Of a stretch of 64,000 bases of DNA, positions 5,432 to 39,653 are shown in pieces. The DNA lies in contig JAYFMW010000005.1 in NCBI GenBank assembly GCA_042408215.1, forward strand, positions 544,001 through 608,000, given 5' to 3'. The DNA is from Microcoleus sp. Lineage in GTDB: Bacteria; Cyanobacteriota; Cyanobacteriia; Cyanobacteriales; Microcoleaceae. Position numbers and translations under genes: made by a program. Position 1 is the first letter of the stretch, and every line of letters starts with the position of its first letter. The notes under the pieces were generated by a model that worked only from the letters and a program-made list of their open reading frames with translations, had not been told where the DNA came from and made no database searches.

Positions 5432-5621
5432 GGTTCGGTTAATCTCAATTGTACGGTCAAGTTTGATGAATTTTTTGTGGGTGGGCCAGAAATCCCGCCC
5501 CTAAAATACAATTTTTGTCTATCATCAAACTGTGACAAACTGACATTCGTGACTGCCGTACACTACATTCCTTGCCCAACTTACTCCTCTCTTCCTCCGC
5601 GCCCTCTGCGTCCTCTGCGGT

Positions 5622-6182
5622 AAATCAAAAAATTAGTGATTTTGAATACAATTTCCAACTCAACAGTCGATCGCACCTCTCAATTTTGTCTGGGGATCTA
5701 AAGTTCACCTAAAGTTCCATGCCCGATCGCAAAACCCTCCCTAAGATAGAAGTTGCAGGACGATCGGTCTCATCGCCGATTCAGCAACACCTGAAAAATC
5801 CCAAACGAGGGAGCCACAAGACAGGGAGGACATCAAAATCATGGTAAACGCGCCGACAGGGGAAACCCGCCTAGGCCCGATCGCTCAGGTGCAAGCCTTA
5901 GACCGCGATTGCACGACTCTATCCCGTCACGTACTCCAGCAACTCCAAAGCTTTTCAGCAGATGCTCAGGATCTGAGCGCGCTGATGAATCGGATCGGAC
6001 TAGCAGCCAAGCTGATCGCCAGGCGACTTAGCAGAGCCGGGTTAATGGAAGATGCTTTAGGGTTTACAGGGGCTGTAAACGTGCAGGGAGAATCCGTCAA
6101 ACATATGGATATCTATGCCAATGAAGTGTTTATCTCCGTATTTCAGCAAAGTGGACTTGTCTGCCACTTGGCTTCGGAGGAA
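5622..6182 (+). repeat. Direct repeat copy A of the fbp upstream region plus the first ~114 fbp codons (matches 16690-17251)
   Basis: Near base-for-base identity to 16690-17251, ending at gcttcggaggaa; only a few substitutions. Confidence 0.95.
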
Positions 6183-6512
6183 GAGGTATATAAAACAGAA
6201 CCTTGGATGATCCCTCTTGCCAAGAGTTTCAAATTACCGGTGATTCATCAAGACCAGGTAATTGAATTGCCAAAGGATGCGACGGCGATCGCGGGCAATC
6301 CCTTTTGCCCTTATAGTGTCGTCACATATGGCGGATCTGTCTTGACTTTTCAGGGACATCCAGAGCATAAAAAGACCTATACGCAGGCGTTAATGCTGCG
6401 CCGGAAAGATGTCATGGAAGAAACGGTGTTCTCCGCAGGTTTGCGTTCACTGGATGACGACCCCGACGCCCAACTGGTCGCAAAATGGGTCGTCAATTTC
6501 CTTGAGGAATGA
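5841..6512 (+). CDS. Chimeric ORF: FBPase N-terminus fused in frame to the C-terminal half of a class I glutamine amidotransferase
   Basis: Residues 1-114 match fbp except R->H. The remainder has HQDQV...LP..A and FQGHPE motifs of type-1 GATases but lacks the nucleophile-Cys segment. Confidence 0.8.
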
Positions 6513-7483: not shown

Positions 7484-7517
7484 ATTAGTTGGGGAGATCG
7501 GATAGTAAATGCTTTCT

Positions 7518-7680
7518 ATAAATAAAAAGAATAGTGATTTTGAATACAATTCCCGACTAAACGCTCGATCGCACTCCTCAATTTTGTGTGCAGATCTAAA
7601 ATTCCCCTAAAGTTCTCGCGGGCGATCGCAAAACCCTCCCTAAGATAGAAGTTGCAGGACGATCGGTCTCATCGCTGATT
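7518..7680 (+). repeat. Diverged third copy (B) of the fbp upstream region
   Basis: Aligns with 16690-16850; gatcgcaaaaccctccctaagatagaagttgcaggacgatcggtctcatcgc is identical. Confidence 0.9.
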
Positions 7681-7893
7681 CGGGGATATGAAGCGGTGCA
7701 AGAAGCAGCCGTAAATGCTGGGGCTTGTGGAATGGTAATTAGCGGTGCGGGGCCGACGCTTTTGGCTTTAACGGATGCTACTAATGCTGTTGCGGTTGTG
7801 AGGGAAATGGCGGCTGCTTGGGGGGATTTTGGGGTGAAGGCTGATGTAAGGGCGATCGGGCTTGATACTCAAGGCGCGCAAGTCTCCAGTTAG
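7675..7893 (+). pseudogene. thrB: Homoserine kinase C-terminal fragment
   Basis: LIRGYEAVQEAAVNAGACGMVISGAGPTLLAL...LDTQGA is a ThrB C-terminus (ISGAGPT motif). The 5' part is absent and replaced by fbp-promoter copy B. Confidence 0.8.
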
Positions 7894-8469
7894 TTGAGTT
7901 CGCTTGACAAAAAATCTAATTTGTGGTAATCGAGCGGGTTTTCTGACATCTTTGGCAGGAAAAGGCGATTTGCGATGCTTGGCGATCGGGATAGATCCGC
8001 TTCACGAACCCTTTAATGAATGTTGCGATCGGTTTTTTCGTAATTTTGCGAACAAATTAAGTTACTTTTTATACAAAGAACAGGCAAATTAGTTTGGCGA
8101 TCCCAGTCCAAAACTCTCACTCATACCAAAATTCGTAGTCTGATATTTCAGGGTACGGAAGTAAGTTAAAGCTTCGATCAAGTTTACTTCAAGATGGCAA
8201 AAACCGCTTGCGATCGATAAAAGTTATTGATATTCTGAAATCTATCGGTTAACAACAGCAATAAAAAAACCAACTTATTGCCATCACATCAAATTTTTGT
8301 CAGCCGTGCTGGCAGGTTTTCACCTGTGGATATCGCATCTTGCATCCGCAAGGTAAAACCCAAACCTCCAGCGTGGTATAGACTCGCTTTGCTTGCGAAA
8401 TTTTCAAAATCTACATCCTCAAATTCTGCATCTTTTGGTCACTTTTATTGTCAATAAAGGACTTAAATC

Positions 8470-11400
8470 ATGTTACGAATCGAAGCATCTACTCCCCAAC
8501 CAACCGCCAACACTTCCATCATCTCCGACATTACAGAAGACTTGCAAGTAGGAAATTATACCAGCAATCATTCTTCCCCCTCCGCCCCGAAAAATCTTCT
8601 AACAACTAACGAAATATCATCCACATCCAGCATTGAACTATTACGATCGAACAACAAAATCCTCGATCGAAGCCCAGAAAACCCTCCCCGACAAGCAGAC
8701 ATAGACGCCTTCATACTCAACAAAAATCCAACACAAACAATCAACAGCATCGCCGAAAAACCGCAAACATCCACCTCCAAAACCGACATAATAACAGGCG
8801 ATACAGCCCAGCCAGCAACTCACAATAACATCCCTTTCGACTCCGGCATTTTCCAAGGAAATCAAACAGGTAAAATTAGCTTCGCATACCTATCAGAATT
8901 GCGTACATCAGAGAAAGACAAAGAATTGATAGCTGAGGCTACACCGAAAACCGAGACTAAATTAGCACAAAAAAAAGCAGATACTACTTCTACAACAAAT
9001 CCTGTTGAAACACAACTGGAAAATTCCCCAGCAACAGAAACCAAAAACTCGACTGTTTCCGAAATTCCTAATTCTGCGAGAAATCCTGTCGATCCAAAAC
9101 TGGAAAATTCCCCAGCGACAGAAACTCAAAACCCGAAAGTTTCCGAAATTTCCAATTCCTCGACAACTCCTGCTGATCCAAAAACCGAAAATTCCCCAGC
9201 GACAGAAACCAAAAACTCGACTGTTTCCGAAATTCCCAATTCTGCGAGAAATCCTGTCGATCCAAAACTGGAAAAATCTCCCGTAGTTGAAGCCAAAAAT
9301 CCCGCAATTTCCGAAATTCGCAATTCTGCGACAAATTCTGCTGAAACAAAACCGGAAAATTCCCCAGCGACAGAAACCAAAAACTCGACTGTTTCCGAAA
9401 TTCCCAATTCCTCGACAACTCCTGCTGATCCAAAAACCGAAAATTCCCCAGCGACAGAAACCAAAAACTCGACTGTTTCCGAAATTCCCAATTCTGCGAC
9501 AAATTCTGCTGAAACAAAACCGGAAAATTCCCCAGCGACAGAAACCAAAAACTCGACTGTTTCCGAAATTTCCAATTCCTCGACAACTCCTGCTGATCCA
9601 AAAACCGAAAACTCCCCAGCGACAGAAACCAAAAACTCGACTGTTTCCGAAATTCCCAATTCTGCGACAAATTCTGCTGAAACAAAACCGGAAAATTCCC
9701 CAGCGACAGAAACCAAAAACTCGACTGTTTCCGAAATTTCCAATTCCTCGACAACTCCTGCTGATCCAAAAACCGAAAACTCCCCAGCGATAGAAACTCA
9801 AAACCCGAAAGTTTCCGAAATTCCCAATTCTGCGAGAAATCCTGTCGATCCAAAACTGGAAAAATCTCCCGTAGTTGAAGCCAAAAATCCCGCAATTTCC
9901 GAAATTCCCAATTCTGCGACAACTCCTGCTGATCCAAAAACCGAAAATTCCCCAGCGACAGAAACCAAAAACTCGACTGTTTCCGAAATTCCCAATTCTG
10001 CGACAACTCCTGCTGATCCAAAAACCGAAAATTCCCCAGCGACAGAAACCAAAAACTCGACTGTTTCCGAAATTCCCAATTCTGCGACAACTCCTGCTGA
10101 TCCAAAAACCGAAAATTCCCCAGCGACAGAAACCAAAAACTCGACTGTTTCCGAAATTCCCAATTCTGCGAGAAATCCTGTCGATCCAAAACTGGAAAAA
10201 TCTCCCGTAGTTGAAGCCAAAAATCCCGCAATTTCCGAAATTCCCAATTCTGCGAGAAATCCTGTCGATCCAAAACTGGAAAATTCCCCAGCGACAGAAA
10301 CCAAAAACTCGACTGTTTCCGAAATTCCCAATTCTGCGACAACTCCTGCTGATCCAAAACTGGAAAAATCTCCCGTAGTTGAAGCCAAAAATCCTACAAT
10401 TTCCGAAATTCGCAATTCTGCGACAAATTCTGCTGAAACAAAACCGGAAAATTCCCCAGCGACAGAAACTCAAAACCCGAAAGTTTCCGAAATTCCCAAT
10501 TCTGCGACAAATCCTGTCGATCCAAAACTGGAAAATTCCCCAGCGACAGAAACCAAAAACTCGACTGTTTCCGAAATTCCCAATTCTGCGACAACTCCTG
10601 CTGATCCAAAACTGGAAAAATCTCCCGTAGTTGAAGCCAAAAATCCTACAATTTCCGAAATTCGCAATTCTGCGACAAATTCTGCTGAAACAAAACCGGA
10701 AAATTCCCCAGCGACAGAAACTCAAAACCCGAAAGTTTCCGAAATTCCCAATTCTGCGACAACTCCTGTCGATCCAAAACTGGAAAAATCTCCCGTAGTT
10801 GAAGCCAAAAATCCCGCAATTTCCGAAATTCCCAATTCTGCGACAACTCCTGCTGATCCAAAAACCGAAAATTCCCCAGCGACAGAAACCAAAAACTCGA
10901 CTGTTTCCGAAATTCCCAATTCTGCGACAACTCCTGCTGATCCAAAAACCGAAAATTCCCCAGCGACAGAAACCAAAAACTCGACTGTTTCCGAAATTCC
11001 CAATTCTGCGACAACTCCTGTCGATCCAAAACTGGAAAATTCCCCAGCGACAGAAACCAAAAACTCGACTGTTTCCGAAATTCCTAATTCTGCGAGAAAT
11101 CCTGTCGATCCAAAACTGGAAAAATCTCCCGTAGTTGAAGCCAAAAATCCTACAATTTCCGAAATTCCCAATTCTGCGACAAATTCTGCTGAAACAAAAA
11201 CCGAAAATTCCCCAGCGACAGAAACCAAAAACTCGACTGTTTCCGAAATTCGCAATTCTGCGACAAATTCTGCTGAAACAAAAACCGAAAATTCCCCAGC
11301 GACAGAAACCAAAAACTCGACTGTTTCCGAAATTCCCAATTCTGCGACAACTCCTGTCGATCCAAAACTGGAAAATTCCCCAGCGACAGAAACCAAAAAC

Positions 11401-14400
11401 TCGACTGTTTCCGAAATTCCTAATTCTGCGAGAAATCCTGTCGATCCAAAACTGGAAAATTCCCCAGCGACAGAAACCAAAAACTCGAAAGTTTCCGAAA
11501 ATATCATCCCAACTTTCTCATAAAACACTCAACCAGCCATTACAGTTGTCAACTCAATCGACGAAATCACAGGTGACAAAATCGAAAAACTCGTCTTTAT
11601 CCAACCAGACAAACCAGAAATAGCAGCAATCCCAGCAGAATCCACAGACATTCTCACCGGGGAAATTGCAAATACCTCCCCAACACTTATCGATACCCCC
11701 GAAATAGCCAGCGAAACTGCTGAAAATTTCCCGCTAATTTCTCCCGATGAAATTTCCACACTGTGGGAAACTCTCAACAGCATATTAGCCCAACAATTTC
11801 CTCTCATTTCCGAAACAGAATCCATCCAAAATTATCAACCATCCGCATCAGAATACATAGTTACCGACACCCAAACTATTATTCCTGAAATCGCCGTCAC
11901 TGAAAACCATTACTCACAACAATCAGAAAATATCATCGCCGACAGCGACAATCAGCCCCCAACAACCATCGACGAATATCTAAACCCCGACTTCGACTCG
12001 GAAAAAATCACAATTACTCCCGCAATACCATCAGACGAAAACCAGCCAGACAACTCACTTCATAGCATCACCGACTCCGAAACCGAATCCCAAACAAACA
12101 TCAACGAATACACAATCACCAACACAGAAACCCAACCAGAAAAAACCCCCAACTTCCCCCAACAAACCCAACCATTAATCGGAATCATCGACACCGGCTT
12201 TGTCGCCAACAATCCCAACATCGACTACAGCCAAATTAGACTCGGAAAAGACGTAATCGAGGGCGACAACAATCCCCTACTCCAACCAAACCAACGAAAC
12301 CAACACGGAAACACAATATTAGAAATTATCAGCGCCTCCAACAATCAAAGCGACACCAAAAAATCGACTTCAATTTGGTTAGGAAGAGCAACTGGTTCCG
12401 GCAACTGGCATCAATCTCTGATAGAATTTGTAGATGTCGCCAAAGCCTCAAAACAACCCAACGCCGTCGTCAACCTCAGCTTCGACTTAACCCAAATCAA
12501 TCCCAACGGTACAGAAACCACACGCTACCAACTCACACCCGAAGAAAAATCAGCACTTAAATACGCCCTTGACAACAACATCCTGATTGTAGCAGCCGCC
12601 GGTAACGAAGGGGCTCTGGTCTCCGCACTCGGACAAGCCTCCACAGAATTCGACAACATCATCACAGTCGGCGCATCCGAAAACAACAACCGCAGCGCCT
12701 ATTCCAGCTACGGAGAAGGCTTGGATATTTTAGCACAAATCAGCCTTCCAGAAACAGCAGAAACTGCAACAACTGAAACAAAACAAGGCACATCAATAGC
12801 AGCAGCCCTCGTCACAAACACCATCTCCCAAATGTGGGAAGCCAACCCATCCCTCAACCGCCAACAAATCAAAAACATCCTCCTCAAAACAGCCACCGAC
12901 ATCGACGTACCCGAATGGGACGAAAGGACAGGATACGGCATCTTAAACCGCGAATTAGCAATTGCTACCGCCACCAAAACAATCCCCACAATCCCAGTAT
13001 TTGCAGCCACCAAACACTTGACAAAATCCCTAATTAATGCTGATTCAAATGTCAGCAACACTCCCAACAATACCACAGCCAAACCCTCAGAAAGACCAAC
13101 CGCAACCAACCCCCCAGCCAACACACCAAAGACTACCAGCACCTCAACCGGAGACTACAACCAAGGTACTAACTCCTACAGCACAGAATTACCCCGAAAC
13201 ACAACCACCACTAATAGCAACTCAAACGGTACAAAGAGCACAAACACTCAAACCACCAACAACTACTCACACACAGATTCCAACTGGGATAAAAGCCGCA
13301 CCCGTACCAACAGTAACAGCAACTCATTCTATGAACAGACAACAGATACAAACACCACAGCCAGGGACTACACAGACAAAAACTTTTCCCTCTACTCAAT
13401 AGAAAACACAAATAAATCCCAGGAAAACTACAGCCGAGTTAAATACGAAGGCACTCGCAACGACCAAAGCTCATCCAATCAGAAATGGCGCTCATCTAGA
13501 AACTATACCAGTCCTTCACAAACTATAAAGACATCTGCCGAAAGTTACCGAAACAACAAAGCTCAATCAGACGTCAAATACGACGGTAACTATGCAGCCA
13601 GTAACTCCAGCAGCCAAGAAGAATCAGGTTCAAAATCAACCACAAACAATAGCTATACTGACAAAAATTACAATTCCGTCAGTAACAGTTCAACCCAAAA
13701 TCAAGGAAAAGCCAACTGGACTAATAGCAGCAACGGCAACAATTCCATCAGCACTTATAGCGGAAACAATGCCGAAGTCAATCAATCCAATTCTCACACC
13801 AAAAGTAGCAGCGATTTCTCCAAAAACAGCAACAGCAACGACAACCGTACAATAATCAATTACACCTGGGACAATACTACAACCAACGGCAAAACCGTCG
13901 GCAGCAGTACCCGCGATACTTATTCGGAAGGGAACAGTAATGCTAACACCAGTTACGATGATGGCAAATCAAACAATAAGAGCAACACAGATACATATAC
14001 CCAGAATCAGTCCCAGGAAACTAATAGTAGCAACGGCACTAACTCTTGGAGTAACAATCGAAATAATGGTTACTCAGTAACTCAGGGGCAACAGCACAGA
14101 AAGTTACAAAAACGGGCCGGATACTAGAAACCACAGTCGAGATAATTATTCAGTCAGTAAATCGAACTCTTCCAGCAGTAACAGTGCCGGAAAACCGAGT
14201 TCTAAAAACCAACAAGAAGATTATTCAGAGAGTCAAGACAAGTGGGATAGCGAGTATAAAGCTGATACTTATACAACCAAAACTAACAGTGACCAATCGA
14301 CAATAACGGCGAGTAAAAGTAACAGCAGCACCGATGGTAATAATACCACCTCATCTAACAGTAGCGATACCTTAACTACTCGGAATTCACAGACAATCAC

Positions 14401-15886
14401 AACTTACAAGGATGGTCGAAAAGAAGAAAATGGCAGTTCGAGTTACGAGAAATGGTCGAGGGATAGCAGTTATGATAGTAAAGGTGTAGTTAGTGACGTT
14501 TACAAGAGTTCTAGCTGGACTTCGAGTTACAGCAAGAATTACTTTAAAGGAGGTTACAGTTGGACGGAAACTATCAGCGGTTACGATTCGGAATCGGTAA
14601 CTAAAAGAGCTGTTTATACGAGTAGTGGCAGTAGTTGGAGTTGGACGAGAAGCGGGACTGTGTGGGATGATGGTCGGAATGATTGGAGTGAAAGTTGGTC
14701 TAAGTCTAGTTGGAAAGATGGCAAGTATGGTCAGAGTGAATCCGAGTCGAAAAGGGGAGGATTCGATCCGAAGAAAACAGGGACGCAGGTGAATGATGTA
14801 CCGAAATTTGGGGAAGCGCCGCGGTTGAATAAGGCTCCGAAAAAACAGGTGCCGCCGGATTTGACGAAGCAGCCGAAGCCGAGCGATGATATTTGGAAGT
14901 TGCCGACTGTTATTCTTAAGGAACCTCAGTTTAAAGATGTTTTTGGTAGTGGTGGATCTAATTCTTCTTCAGGTGGGAGTGGGAAGGATAATTTTCCTGA
15001 TAATTGGTTTGGTGGTTCTGGTGGTGGCAACCCACCAAATCAGGACAAAATACAAAAATTTCTCCGCGAATTTCGTAGAGTAATGGCACAGGGAAAACGT
15101 GCTGTCATAGATTTTCTCAAAGGATTCATTTACCACTCTCTGATAAATGGCGTCGGTATCCTCAAGGATGTAGCTGACCTCTTGTACCCACCAGGAGCAA
15201 AATCCCATGCTGAAATTGAGGCATATTACCGGAATAATCTGAGTTTTCAGGCAGGAAGAGCTATCGCCAATGGATTAACTTTTCTAGCGGGAATACTAGG
15301 GATTTTGTTGATCGGACTGACTATTGGAGGTAGTGGTGGTAGTGCTTTAGTGGCAGCGCCCGCACAGGTAGCAGCGCTAGTAGCTGCTGGTAATATGACG
15401 GCAGCTAGTGCGCGAGATATCCTCACCATAGTAAGTCAATTTTTTCAGGTTAATTCTGGGAACGCTGCTGGTACTTTTCATCCGGGCGCGCGTACATTAA
15501 CTGATGAAGAATCATTATCACAGGGTTTGCGGGTTCATAATAGACCACAATTTTCAGAAAAAAATATGCAGGGTGCATTGCCAAATCCGTCTGGTCAGGC
15601 AGGACATGCGAATAGTAAGCATGAATTTTCTAAGCAGCTACAAGCTGATATCATCAACAAACCAGAGCGTGTGTTTATCGGGATCAACGATAATGGTCGG
15701 CAAGTTACTGTATTCTATAAGGACGGGAACGTAGTTATCACTCAAGATAATGATTTTACTCGCGTCATCACTGCATACGGTCGTAGCGCAATCAGTAAAT
15801 CATCAGGGGGTCAAGTCAGACCAGGAACGCCTGTCTCTCCTAATAGATGGATGAATAGCCCCAATTATTTGGAAATCAGTAAGTGA
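8470..15886 (+). pseudogene. Giant repeat-S8 peptidase-pre-toxin-toxin protein (~2471 aa if repaired), broken by an in-frame TAA at 11521 and a +1 frameshift at G4 14085-14088
   Basis: The frame of 8470 stays open after TAA 11521-11523 through 14127. Removing one G joins it to the frame of ORF 14660..15886, which is open from ~14087. S8 triad motifs: IDTG (12187-12198), QHG (12301), AAGN and GTS (12787-12795). Confidence 0.75.
9021..11500 (+). repeat. 84-bp (28-aa) coding tandem repeat, about 29-30 units
   Basis: Unit ENSPATETKNSTVSEIPNSATTPADPKT with interchangeable half-unit variants. Confidence 0.97.
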
Positions 15887-15905
15887 GTATCTTGGAGGTC
15901 AAAAT

Positions 15906-16373
15906 ATGAACCCAATTCTCGAACAAAAGCTTTGGAATGCAGGAAAATATGCAGAAGCATATACCCAAGAAATATGGCAGGAAATTATTGATGCAATCCT
16001 TGATGAATTTCAAAATTTTCTGGGACAGGATTTTCACCGAGATCCTGAAATTAGGTTAGATATCAAATATCCAAATTCCCCATCATTTGGTCGATGGCTC
16101 TGGACTGGAGAGAGAGAAGATGCTCCTTTGCATACAGCATGGTCGGCTGTTATTGGCGGGGATATGGTAGGAACTGAAAGCGGGGAAGATCTTTTTCATG
16201 TTAGTCTTACTTTATTTGTGTTCGACGTGACTAGCAAAAAGCGTTTATGCTTACAAACTGGTGAGAGCTTCCTTGAGTTTGTTTTTGAAAAACAATCCGA
16301 TAGTCATGGATATTGGCGTACTTTGGGGTGGTTTAAGGATGAATGGGGTGAGTGGGAGGATGTTCAATTTTAA
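15906..16373 (+). CDS. Putative immunity protein
   Basis: 155-aa acidic, Trp-rich ORF with a GGAGG RBS, 19 bp after the toxin-like stop. The function is inferred from position. Confidence 0.55.
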   Translation: MNPILEQKLWNAGKYAEAYTQEIWQEIIDAILDEFQNFLGQDFHRDPEIRLDIKYPNSPSFGRWLWTGEREDAPLHTAWSAVIGGDMVGTESGEDLFHVSLTLFVFDVTSKKRLCLQTGESFLEFVFEKQSDSHGYWRTLGWFKDEWGEWEDVQF

Positions 16374-16909
16374 ATTTGCATCTCCCGCTCGCGCACAACT
16401 TCCTTTGAATTGATCGACCGGGGCGGGCTAGTCATTTTGTGCGATCGAATTATTGTCGATAGTTTGAGCTGAAATGGCGCTCGCACTTGGGAACAATTTC
16501 CTTTTAGTCGATCGCCCGTTTTTAGGTGATTTTCTGTTTCGGGCGATCGTACACAGAGTACAACTTCCTTTCAGTACATCGCCCACTTTGAGATAATTTT
16601 CTATTTCGGGCGATCGGGCGATCGAACTTTTGGATGACGGGCGATCGCCCGATCGCAGTCTATCGCCCCGGATGACCCCGATTCCCATATAAATAAAAAA
16701 TTTAGTTATTTTGAATACAATTCCCGACTCAACAGTCGATCGCACCTCTCAATTTTGTCTGGGGATCTAAAGTTCACCTAAAGTTCCATGCCCGATCGCA
16801 AAACCCTCCCTAAGATAGAAGTTGCAGGACGATCGGTCTCATCGCCGATTCAGCAACACCTGAAAAATCCCAAACGAGGGAGCCACAAGACAGGGAGGAC
16901 ATCAAAATC

Positions 16910-17983
16910 ATGGTAAACGCGCCGACAGGAGAAACCCGCCTAGGCCCGATCGCTCAGGTGCAAGCCTTAGACCGCGATTGCACGACTCTATCCCGTCACG
17001 TACTCCAGCAACTCCAAAGCTTTTCAGCAGATGCTCAGGATCTGAGCGCGCTGATGAATCGGATCGGACTAGCAGCCAAGCTGATCGCCAGGCGACTTAG
17101 CAGAGCCGGGTTAATGGAAGATGCTTTAGGGTTTACAGGGGCTGTAAACGTGCAGGGAGAATCCGTCAAACATATGGATATCTATGCCAATGAAGTGTTT
17201 ATCTCCGTATTTCAGCAAAGTGGACTTGTCTGCCGCTTGGCTTCGGAGGAAATGGAAAAACCCTATTATATTCCCGAAAATTGTCCGATCGGGCGCTACA
17301 GTCTCCTCTATGACCCCATAGACGGTTCTTCCAATCTTGACATCAATCTCAACGTCGGCTCAATCTTTAGCATCCGCAAGCAAGAGGGGGACGATGAAGA
17401 CGGTTCTGCTTCCGATTTGCTGCAACACGGACACAAACAAATCGCCGCTGGCTACGTGCTCTACGGGCCCAGTACAATGCTGGTTTATTCGATCGGCCAA
17501 GGCGTTCATTCCTTTACTCTCGACCCCAGTTTGGGCGAGTTTATTCTAGCAACCGAAAACATACAGGTTCCAGACAGCGGCCCGATTTACAGTGTTAATG
17601 AAGGTAGTTTTTGGCAGTGGGATGAATCTTTTCGGGATTATATTCGCTACGTACACCGCAGCGAAGGCTACACCGCCCGGTACGGAGGGGCTTTGGTGGG
17701 AGATTTCCACCGGATTTTGTTTCAAGGAGGCGTGTTTTTGTATCCAGGAACAGTGAAAAAACCCGAAGGCAAATTGCGCTTACTCTACGAGTCGGCTCCT
17801 TTGGCGTTTTTGATGGAGCAAGCCGGCGGGCGGGCTAGTACCGGCATTCAAGACATCTTGGACGTGGTGCCAACTAAAATTCACGAGCGCACGCCCTTGA
17901 TTATCGGCAGCAAAGAAGATGTAGCCCTAGTGGAGTCTTTTATTAAAGATCGATCGCGCAATCCTAGAACACTTGAAGAGTAA
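16910..17983 (+). CDS. fbp: Class 1 fructose-1,6-bisphosphatase
   Basis: [29 protein letters not shown] motifs. Confidence 0.97.
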
Positions 17984-38385: not shown

Positions 38386-39653
38386 ATGTCTAATTTTGTT
38401 TTTGTACTTGATACCCACAAACGACCGCTCAATCCAATTCGGGATTGGCTCGTAAATTGCTAAACAATGGCAAAGCTGCTGTGTTTAAAAGGTATCCGTT
38501 CACGCTAATTCTGAAAGTAGAGGTGACAGCAACCCAAAAATCAATCACTCTTAAAATAGACCCAGGCTCTAAGACTACGGAAATCGCATTAGTGCAAGGA
38601 GAGAACGTCATTTTTGGTGCAGAATTAACTCACCGAGGTCAAACAATCAAAGCCAGTTTGGAGTCTCGCCGTTCATTGCGTAGAGGTAGGAGAAATCGTC
38701 ACACTCGTTATCGTCAAGCGAGGTTTTTCAATCGCACCCGACAAAAGGGTTGGTTAGCACCATCCTTACAACATCGAGTAGAAACAACCCTAACTTGGGT
38801 TAAGAAATTTATCCGACTCGCACCCATTGGTTCAATTGTTCAAGAATTAGTAAGATTTGACTTACAACAACTATAAAATCCCGAAATATCAGGCGTTGAA
38901 TATCAGCAAGGAGAATTAGCTGGCTACGAAGTTCGGGAATATCTATTGAACAAATGGGACAGGAAATGCGCTTATTGCGGTGTTGAAAATGTACCTTTGC
39001 AAATTGAACATATTCATCCCAAAGCTAAAGGTGGCAGCGATCGCATTTCTAACCTTTGCCTTGCTTGTGAAAGATGTAATAAAAAGAAAGGAACTCAAGG
39101 TATTGAGCAATTCCTCTCTAAAAAGCCAGATATTTTGAAGCGGATTCTATCTCAAGCTCATCGTCCTCTAAAAGACGCGACAGCAGTCAATTCAACTCGT
39201 TGGGCATTATTTAATCGACTCCGTATGACTGGCTTACCAGTTTCTACTGGCAGTGGTGGCCTAACAAAGTTCAACCGCACTCGATTGAATTTAGCTAAAA
39301 CTCATTGGTTAGATGCAGCTTGTGTTGGGAATGTTGATTCGTTGGAAATCCTGACAAACAAGCCATTGTTAATTAAAGCGACTGGACATGGGACAGGTCA
39401 AATGTGTCGTACCGACAAGTTTGGATTTCCATCTCGCTATGTTCCCAGATTTAAATTTGTCAAAGGTTTTCAAACGGGGGATATCGTTAAAGCGATTGTA
39501 ACCTCCGGCAATAAAATTGGTAAATACGTTGGACGTGTTGCCGTAAGAACGAGTGGTTCATTCAATATTTCCGCATCCGAATTGGTATCGGGAATTAGTC
39601 ACAAATATTGTTCAGTTGTTCACCGAAAGGATGGTTATTCGTATGCAGCATAA
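38386..39653 (+). pseudogene. iscB: IscB RNA-guided nuclease, inactivated
   Basis: PLNP (PLMP-like), KIDPGSK (RuvC-I), RRGRR bridge helix, WLAPSL, CAYCG..EHIHPK..GGS..N (HNH), HWLDAAC. Frameshift at ~38440 and TAA at 38874. Confidence 0.9.

Follow-up and report, generated by a model that had tools for sequence, protein, structure and literature searches.

The window analysed here is a stretch of 64,000 nucleotides (nt) from Microcoleus sp. (GenBank assembly GCA_042408215.1, contig JAYFMW010000005.1, positions 544,001 to 608,000), and its positions 8470-16373 hold a giant gene with a small gene close behind it, both on the forward strand, as are all features below unless stated otherwise. We consider it likely that the two genes form a toxin-immunity locus belonging to a family of polymorphic toxins of Microcoleus-like filamentous cyanobacteria, and that the window carries a broken copy of it. 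The full-length toxin is a single chain of about 1900-2300 amino acids (aa) in which a family-specific N-terminus, with or without a DUF4114 domain, is followed by disordered 28-aa repeats, an active-looking subtilase (S8 peptidase) domain, a spacer rich in Ser, Thr and Asn, a stalk rich in Trp and Lys, and an exchangeable C-terminal cassette. In the window this cassette comprises a hydrophobic Gly/Ala pre-toxin module, a basic tip of 136 aa and the gene for an acidic protein of 155 aa. A polymorphic toxin with an immunity-like gene was the main point of a preliminary description made from the sequence of this stretch, and it is supported by the analysis presented here. The anatomy given in that description (one frame of ~2471 aa, ~29 repeats, an acidic stalk, S8, a Ser/Thr/Asn region, a hydrophobic segment, a tip and the 155-aa gene) is also present in every feature.

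A conserved scaffold with exchangeable C-termini

The assembly presents the giant gene as three pieces, namely an open reading frame (ORF) at 8470-11523 (1017 aa), its in-frame continuation at 11524-14127, and a +1 frame that is open at 14081-15886. Translation of 8470-14130 in one frame meets a single stop, the TAA at 11521-11523, and the two frames overlap around a GGGG at 14085-14088. By translation and coordinate arithmetic, 8470-15886 is one frame of 2471 codons once the frameshift is corrected. That the pieces belong to one gene goes beyond chance, because relatives hold them as a single open frame, of 1906 aa at locus L013 and of 2056, 2103 and 1949 aa in the database proteins P0145, P0154 and P0172. 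The stalk was found in 27 of 78 other Microcoleus genomes, often repeated within a few kilobases (kb) and with several copies inside 9 kb in genomes G025, G460 and G461, and many of the frames that contain it encode 1900-2324 aa. A query consisting of the pre-toxin module plus the tip found matches in 5 of 36 further Microcoleus genomes and in none of 24 genomes from other families of the order.

The C-termini of the homologues vary, as the proposed polymorphic-toxin layout implied. We compared the last 170 aa of 29 proteins, 23 of them long database homologues and six from the window and the fetched loci, and these sequences fell into 11 clusters with no BLASTP similarity from one cluster to another. 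The database homologues are named S8 family peptidase or hypothetical protein and come from Microcoleus, Tychonema and Oscillatoriales; one further homologue belongs to Oscillatoria nigro-viridis PCC 7112. The cluster made up of P0145-P0147 and locus L011 matches Pfam CdiA_C above the cutoff (E 4.5e-17 to 2e-14), so that P0145 combines DUF4114, S8 and CdiA_C within its 2056 aa. One singleton class is PG_binding_1, and a lenient Pfam scan of the other tip classes found only S8, DUF4114 and PG_binding_1. Unrelated C-terminal domains joined to a conserved scaffold among close homologues are what characterises polymorphic toxins in the sense of Zhang et al. 2012.

The stalk (14681-15130; WSESWSKSSWKDGKY...FDPKKT...PKFGEAPRLNKAPK) is the last part common to all homologues and serves as the junction for one set of tips. 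Conserved sequence ends at either of two junctions, with the tip placed directly after the stalk or after a hydrophobic module that terminates in ...Q(V/M)xSGN. The module of the window (15131-15475) has two Gly/Ala-rich hydrophobic segments and ends in ...QVNSGN; the hydrophobic segment GLTFLAGILGILLIGLTIG has a Kyte-Doolittle mean of 2.21 over 19 residues. Although it has no Pfam or NCBIfam match, the module is 85-97% identical in relatives that bear a different tip, and the CdiA_C tips ride on a version that is 85-89% identical to that of the window. BLAST places the module with tip classes 2 (CdiA_C), 3, 4, 9 and 10 (the class of the window), while in classes 5 and 7 only the hydropathy profile points to a comparable Gly-rich hydrophobic stretch. 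The ten proteins of classes 1, 8 (PG_binding_1) and 11 are without it. We propose that the module is a membrane-translocation device. Tips that act in the cytoplasm would need it to cross a membrane and tips that act on the wall would not, a division for which tool support is confined to CdiA_C and PG_binding_1, the remaining assignments being made from sequence motifs.

The commonest class apart from that of the window is marked by an NCWE...H motif and accounts for 8 of the 29 C-termini. In two genomes these tips are followed by a conserved ORF of 415-453 aa that begins with a hydrophobic segment (L013, 8332-9576; L011, 6514-7872), and this ORF is a candidate for an exported immunity protein against a wall-acting tip.

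The S8 domain of the window (12169-12939) is intact, with a complete active site. It matches Pfam PF00082 (Peptidase_S8) with E 4.3e-26 and 92.3 bits, against a cutoff of 21.8, over profile positions 3-288 of 288. The motifs IIDTG, NQHGN, VVNLS and GTSIA provide the Asp-His-Ser triad and the oxyanion Asn (Asp 12190, His 12304, Asn 12472 and Ser 12793), and the catalytic motifs are retained in the window and in each homologue that possesses the region. Identity to relatives is 82-87% in S8 against 60-63% in the spacer, and the nearest solved structures in the PDB are subtilisins (E about 1e-13). A single frame encodes both S8 and the tip, in the window as in each of the 23 database homologues. 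An NCBIfam match to a mycosin model reached 81 bits against a cutoff of 279, and we rejected that identity; the domain is not the mycosin equivalog. The same genome encodes other large S8 proteins (contig C28, 22289-24463; C29, 142657-143487; C8, 192166-192777), whose protease domains are 43-55% identical to this one. One of these large proteins is a 2362-aa frame with three S8 matches, and none of them possesses the Trp/Lys-rich stalk of the family.

The low-complexity region between S8 and the stalk (13024-14680, ~550 aa) consists of 19% Ser, 19% Asn and 16% Thr and holds the extra G at 14085-14088. At the other end of the protein, the N-terminal region (8470-8987; MLRIEASTP...DITEDLQ...) is confined to its own family, to which all 11 of its matches belong. 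The preliminary description had seen no RHS, CdiA, LXG or signal-peptide-like feature; likewise, Pfam and NCBIfam found none of them, and neither a signal peptide nor a hydrophobic leader is seen in the translated N-terminus. Between '...FDYLSD' and '...RTSEKGKE', P0145 and P0154 have ~170 aa with Pfam DUF4114 where the window has 'ISFAYLSELRTSEKDKE', so that the DUF4114 core which full-length homologues carry between N-terminus and repeats is missing from the copy studied here. This absence need not be a defect, because four other database proteins share the short form: P0168 (with DYLSEL), P0169 and the diverged P0171 and P0173. The repeats that follow (8988-11500) are rich in Ser, Thr, Pro, Asn and Glu and have an isoelectric point (pI) of 4.66; Tandem Repeats Finder reports a period of 84 nt (28 aa) and 29.9 copies, with 83% matches. 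An acidic linker (11524-12168, pI 4.05) connects the array, beyond the stop, to S8.

The probable toxin tip and its candidate partner gene

The tip (15476-15886, 136 aa) is basic, with a pI of 9.63. With the last 147 aa as its query, phmmer found 123 matches at E<=1e-3 in a set of 1.84 billion representatives. Of these matches, 66 reach E<=1e-10, and in 99 of the 123 relatives the match ends no more than 30 aa from the C-terminus. We scanned 30 long relatives with Pfam and found eCIS_core in 11, PT-HINT in 6, RHS above the cutoff in 3 (and below it in one more) and a T7SS signal domain in 1; seven had no Pfam family at all, and in none did a family cover the tip. The tip thus appears to be a mobile toxin domain that also ends other delivery scaffolds. 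A profile of it matched only two of 400 other cyanobacterial genomes, both of the same genus.

In a 58-row alignment the tip conserves His55 (49/51), His60 (51/51), Lys59 (33/45), Thr100 (54/58) and Thr110 (51/57), which in the window are encoded at 15605, 15620, 15617, 15740 and 15770, respectively. Asn72, Arg86 and the VITAYG strand are also conserved, and the window has every conserved residue. Our best guess, from a predicted structure, is that the tip may be a BECR-type ribonuclease (RNase) with weak likeness to colicins E5 and D. The AlphaFold2 model has a mean predicted local distance difference test (pLDDT) value of 89.7 and a predicted template modelling (pTM) score of 0.85. A wide VIA-align search with this model ranked the colicin E5 RNase domain first (Z 4.3) and an Escherichia coli CdiA-CT next (3.6), and its first 16 rows also contained a second E. 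coli CdiA-CT at 3.3, colicin D at 3.1 and 2.9, and a Pseudomonas CdiA tip at 2.8; CdiA-CT toxins and colicins E5 and D thus took ranks 1, 2, 5, 7, 13 and 16. In a second look, colicin E5 scored Z 4.8 (80 of 86 residues at a root-mean-square deviation, rmsd, of 3.3) and 3.6, and colicin D about 3.0 (84 of 96 residues). The Z values of both searches all fall short of about 8, the level from which the tool treats a match as meaningful. Among language-model features, the nearest clusters are unnamed (0.91) and Colicin_D clusters follow at 0.87-0.88.

It is possible, though we doubt it, that the tip is toxic by another activity, for instance by cutting DNA, modifying proteins or acting on membranes. 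The absence of a sequence match to any RNase family and the low structural scores would fit such a tip. Against it stand the colicin E5 and D tRNase domains, which supply six of the eight best rows of the second look and align over most of their length, as well as the ranks of the CdiA-CT and colicin domains in the wide search and the proximity of the Colicin_D clusters. The two invariant His residues, together with the Lys and Thr, would also suit a metal-independent RNase. A Pfam search at E<=10 with the last 128 and 251 aa returned Phage_T4_Gp30_7 at E 0.1-0.25, far below the cutoff, and we judged this a chance match.

The 155-aa gene (15906-16373) encodes an acidic protein of pI 4.48 and has a GGAGG 7 nt before its ATG, and on the pattern of its occurrence it is a candidate for the immunity partner of the tip. 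The linkage between tip and small gene that had been noted in the window recurs elsewhere. The protein has 21 database homologues, all of them unnamed hypothetical proteins of cyanobacteria, and in 6 of 20 loci of this family a tip lies directly upstream, giving seven pairs with gaps of 22-25 nt (19-25 nt when the window is counted). These pairs occur in Microcoleus, Oscillatoriales and Coleofasciculaceae, and it is within this clade only that the linkage is demonstrated. In the window a basic tip is matched with an acidic partner (pI 9.63 and 4.48), and the partner changes with the tip, a CdiA_C tip being followed by a different ORF of 153 aa. A complex prediction for the tip and the 155-aa protein, run without controls, scored 0.00 and says nothing either way.

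In the relatives there are also arrays of the kind that cassette displacement typically leaves. L009/L016, L012/L017 and L018 contain orphan fragments of the tip, and behind each fragment stands a copy of the 155-aa gene. At L009 the main gene is followed by a partner of 78% identity, a tip fragment without the His motif and a partner of 97% identity, and at L012 a tip and its partner precede a stalk fragment with a different tip. The array at L011 runs from a CdiA_C tip and the 153-aa ORF through a CdiA_C fragment and a 155-aa paralogue of that ORF to a stalk fragment, which bears a third kind of tip and precedes an ORF of 453 aa. At L013 this 453-aa ORF again follows the same tip class. The window has no orphan cassette, and fbp comes directly next. 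Compared with L016, identity is 97% in the pre-toxin module and 90% in the tip as against 63% in the Ser/Thr/Asn region and 68% in the stalk, a jump that fits a recent exchange of the cassette.

Several results weigh against a toxin-immunity locus as we read it. The tip has no Pfam, NCBIfam or PDB sequence match (hmmsearch of PDB sequences with the tip profile gave none at E<=10), its best fold match is weak at Z 4.8, and Foldseek of the tip model against the PDB found nothing at E<=1e-3. The model of the 155-aa protein likewise has no informative fold match; its best VIA-align hits (Z 5.9) are unrelated lipid-transfer, allergen and designed proteins, Foldseek against the PDB found none at E<=1e-3, and the ESM Atlas gave nothing usable. 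The roles that we presume for tip classes other than CdiA_C and PG_binding_1 come from sequence motifs and not from the result of a tool. No signal peptide, secretion domain or secretion gene was found in the protein or among the window genes scanned. The copy in the window is broken, so that no claim is possible on activity in this strain, and the public runs listed for the locus include no RNA run. Finally, the tip is absent upstream of the gene in 11 of the 20 loci of the 155-aa family, for each of which the upstream flank spans 600 nt or more, and in three others the flank is too short to judge; some of the 20 may be the same contigs as the fetched loci, and none was counted twice. One of the 11 follows an RHS/DUF6531 protein that stops before its tip and one follows an S8 fragment, and in the remainder, from Nostoc, Calothrix, Leptolyngbya and an Oscillatoriales genome, the homologue lies amid unrelated or housekeeping genes. 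Solitary immunity genes are common among polymorphic toxins, and these solitary homologues may be orphan immunity genes.

The solitary homologues at L020-L034 (Nostoc, Calothrix, Leptolyngbya and others) are 55-66% identical to the query. Two plasmids of Calothrix sp. PCC 7716 carry three copies, each of 60% identity, one of which stands just after a truncated RHS protein.

We regard as highly improbable the alternative that the giant protein is no competition toxin at all and is instead a surface or secreted protease whose variable C-termini remodel the wall, sheath or matrix of its own cell, with small genes that are unrelated or encode chaperones. Such a role would agree with the three tip classes (10 of 29 proteins) that have no hydrophobic module, one of which has PG_binding_1 and two of which we take to resemble wall hydrolases. 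It would also agree with the failure of Pfam and NCBIfam to find a secretion system or a known toxin-trafficking domain, and with 155-aa homologues that are often solitary in other genera. It is at odds with the Pfam CdiA_C domain on the same scaffold and with a tip shared by RHS, PT-HINT, eCIS_core and T7SS-signal proteins. Orphan tip-plus-partner cassettes, and an identity that jumps where the cassette begins, are the mark of polymorphic toxins and not of housekeeping enzymes, and the distribution is patchy, with 27 of 78 other genomes of the genus.

Two breaks of different kinds

We aligned Logan contigs of four runs from four studies, one of which (X1) may be the window's own source, to positions 11500-14300. 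The two breaks in the giant gene proved to differ in kind. The contigs of all four runs omit one letter at 14085, reading GGG where the assembly has GGGG at 14085-14088, and therefore the frameshift is an error of this assembly, a homopolymer indel. With the extra G removed, the frame reads ...YSVTQGNSTESYKNGP..., of which the counterpart in P0145 is ...YSVTQGNDTQNYKNGP.... The stretch around the TAA at 11521 is reached by two of the four runs (X1 and X5), and both carry the TAA with no differing letter. The window reads TCA TAA AAC at this site and the congeneric homologue L013 reads TCA GAA AAC; at the protein level, '...FS*NTQPAI' in the window corresponds to '...ISENTQPAI' in P0145 and P0154. 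Since both runs match the TAA and the homologues read GAA, the TAA at 11521-11523 is a genuine premature stop that arose by a change from GAA (Glu). The preliminary description had called for reads to be mapped at both sites and had presented the gene as a hidden one, intact but for two repairable breaks. This holds for the frameshift, which is an artefact, and does not hold for the stop, which is real.

The stop probably leaves this copy without a full-length toxin or an S8-toxin part, while the partner gene is kept. That the S8-toxin part is most likely not made follows from the lack of a start codon: no in-frame ATG, GTG or TTG occurs for 399 codons after the TAA, where 6.7 would be expected from composition. 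The linker up to S8 has none, and the only one before 12760 is the TTG at 12721, which lies downstream of the S8 Asp (12190).

It seems unlikely, but is conceivable, that the locus still functions and yields a repeat protein from the first ORF and an S8-toxin as two products, through read-through of the stop or re-initiation at a non-canonical start just past it. Everything downstream of the TAA is intact, including the S8 motifs, the conserved residues of the tip and the small gene; contigs from two studies show the identical TAA allele, which is thus no private lesion; and ATT and ATC codons lie 5-20 codons past the stop. The empty 399 codons and the position of the S8 Asp upstream of the first possible start argue the other way, as do the homologues, with GAA at the site and one continuous frame. 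The intact downstream sequence may just mean that the lesion is recent, as the four runs show no differences over 2.8 kb. At least one homopolymer indel error exists in this assembly, so that its other frameshifts are possibly artefacts as well and require read support before they are interpreted.

Known systems, mechanism and genomic setting

Subtilases have been associated with polymorphic toxins before. The S8-PTS of Gram-positives (Li, Tan & Zhang 2022, PMC9424270) bring together a subtilase, a toxin that is polymorphic at the C-terminus and an immunity gene, and related cases are the S8-Ntox35 system of Staphylococcus aureus (Mwangi et al. 2026, PMC13556192) and the ABP toxins with their cognate serine protease (Colautti et al. 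2025, PMC12582261). According to the relevant passages of these three papers, the toxin, which has a signal peptide and a BetaH domain, is activated through cleavage by an S8 protease that is secreted as a protein of its own. Once freed, the toxin enters its target by proton motive force, without a dedicated injection machine; many of the tips are nucleases. The Microcoleus family resembles the S8-PTS and ABP systems, as these passages present them, in combining a subtilase with a polymorphic toxin tip and an immunity gene. It differs from them in that its S8 domain lies within the same chain of ~2000 aa and is not a separate protein, and in that its toxin has no signal peptide, carries a Gly/Ala hydrophobic module before the tip and belongs to a diderm cyanobacterial host. 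The family is not an S8-PTS as defined, but it plausibly works like one, and the locus can be seen as a cyanobacterial version, fused in cis, of the S8-associated polymorphic toxins already known.

The survey by Zhang, de Souza, Anantharaman, Iyer & Aravind 2012 (PMC3482391) names subtilisin/S8 domains, for example with Ntox32, among the processing proteases inside toxins exported by Sec and PVC routes. Its systems share with the Microcoleus family a conserved scaffold, a pre-toxin domain, a variable tip, an adjacent immunity gene and orphan cassettes. The passages of that survey that bear on these proteases do not contain the present scaffold, with its family N-terminus, DUF4114, 28-aa repeats, S8, stalk and hydrophobic module. 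Unlike the polymorphic toxins described there, the Microcoleus protein has no export or trafficking module recognisable by Pfam, by NCBIfam or at its N-terminus. We found no published description of the scaffold in listings and abstracts, although proteins of this kind might appear in supplementary material, for example in Additional File 1 of Zhang et al. 2012.

The likeness to CdiA/CdiI lies in a long filamentous protein whose tip varies after a conserved junction motif and in an immunity gene directly downstream, and some homologues on the Microcoleus scaffold bear Pfam CdiA_C itself. Unlike CdiA, the protein has no TPS domain, FHA repeats, VENN motif or CdiB partner by Pfam, in the protein and those window genes that were scanned, and its junction is ...Q(V/M)xSGN. 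In structure, the tip model comes closest to the colicin E5 and D tRNases (BECR fold), which also pair a small basic RNase with an acidic immunity protein. Here the difference is that the tip resembles them weakly (Z 4.8, at rmsd 3.3 over 80 residues, for colicin E5; Z about 3 for colicin D) and not in sequence.

We infer the following mechanism for the family. The full-length toxin would be exported by some route, after which the S8 domain would cut the chain, in cis or between molecules, and free the C-terminal piece. This self-cleavage, which the preliminary description had also suggested, is drawn by analogy from the systems with a separate activating S8 protease. The hydrophobic module would then take the tip across the cytoplasmic membrane of the target, where the tip, through its two invariant His, the Lys and the Thr, would cleave RNA, and the 155-aa protein would protect the producer and its kin by blocking the tip. 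Here, the change from GAA to TAA ends translation after the repeats, and the small gene is kept with a strong ribosome-binding site of its own.

It is tempting to go further, although we hold the following extension to be rather improbable as a whole. The family may be a self-contained platform that uses no known secretion machine, in which export follows an undescribed route set by the family N-terminus, the cassette is cut loose by the in-chain subtilase once outside the cell, and the Gly/Ala module is a new translocator that brings nuclease and deaminase-like tips across diderm membranes, while wall-acting tips do without it. Strains with a nonsense allele that keep the immunity gene would then be resistant non-producers, as in the present case, and could influence which lineages live together in benthic mats.

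To our knowledge, the protein weapons of cyanobacteria are almost unstudied, though mat-forming Microcoleus strains coexist and compete. Of the species sampled from the genus, about one in three has the scaffold, whose exchangeable tips number at least 11; the toxin domain and its partner family are outside Pfam, and the presence of the hydrophobic module tracks the kind of tip. The idea of a protease-activated toxin, so far shown only in Gram-positives and with a separate protease, would be extended to a phylum that is diderm and in which protease and toxin are fused in cis.

Similarity to relatives is limited to 8021-16514, and because it covers only this segment, the locus must lie in different places in different genomes. 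Synteny with congeneric loci begins at ~8021 with 79-81% nucleotide identity, and the conserved upstream region (8021-8469) is the probable promoter and 5' leader of the toxin gene. A terminator-like hairpin follows the small gene at 16510-16531. Scans of the region for promoters and terminators gave site counts that were not above those of shuffled sequences, and this applies to sites like the hairpin as well.

A direct repeat of 562 nt, which comprises the region upstream of fbp and the first 114 codons of that gene, bounds the locus. Its left copy lies at 5621-6182 and its right copy at 16690-17251, where it continues into the intact fbp (16910-17983). The copies are 98.8% identical and 11,069 nt apart, and the genome has no further full copies. 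Between them they enclose an insert of ~11 kb with an EamA transporter gene and the toxin locus, 3' of which the fbp-tal-zwf-opcA cluster is intact. The ORF at 5841-6512 is a 5' fragment of fbp fused to other sequence (Pfam FBPase positions 2-90). The arrangement looks like the outcome of a single-crossover integration, upstream of fbp-tal-zwf-opcA, of DNA that bore an fbp fragment.

A third, partial copy of the fbp segment (87-88%) lies at 7517-7681. An 81% copy of the fbp-upstream segment is also found between the cassettes of the congeneric toxin array L011 (10112-10438), and because that array holds the segment too, its association with the toxin locus predates this strain. Upstream of the duplicated segment, an element of ~45 nt at 5584-5632 has ~50 further matches across the genome, some of them in evenly spaced runs such as eight copies ~105 nt apart on contig C28 (164697-165480). 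A 105-aa ORF on the reverse strand (16428-16745), which overlaps the start of the repeated fbp-upstream segment and has no family match, is probably not a gene.

Elsewhere in the window, the adjacent ORFs at 38445-38876 and 38946-39653 match Pfam RRXRR (E 1.6e-57) and HNH (E 4e-12), respectively, and resemble what we take to be a split IscB-like RRXRR-HNH nuclease. Two adjacent ORFs on the reverse strand at 202-2455 combine an AAA_16/NPHP3_N NTPase with APAF1_C helical domains; they constitute a STAND-type NTPase that is possibly split, or possibly part of a conflict system.

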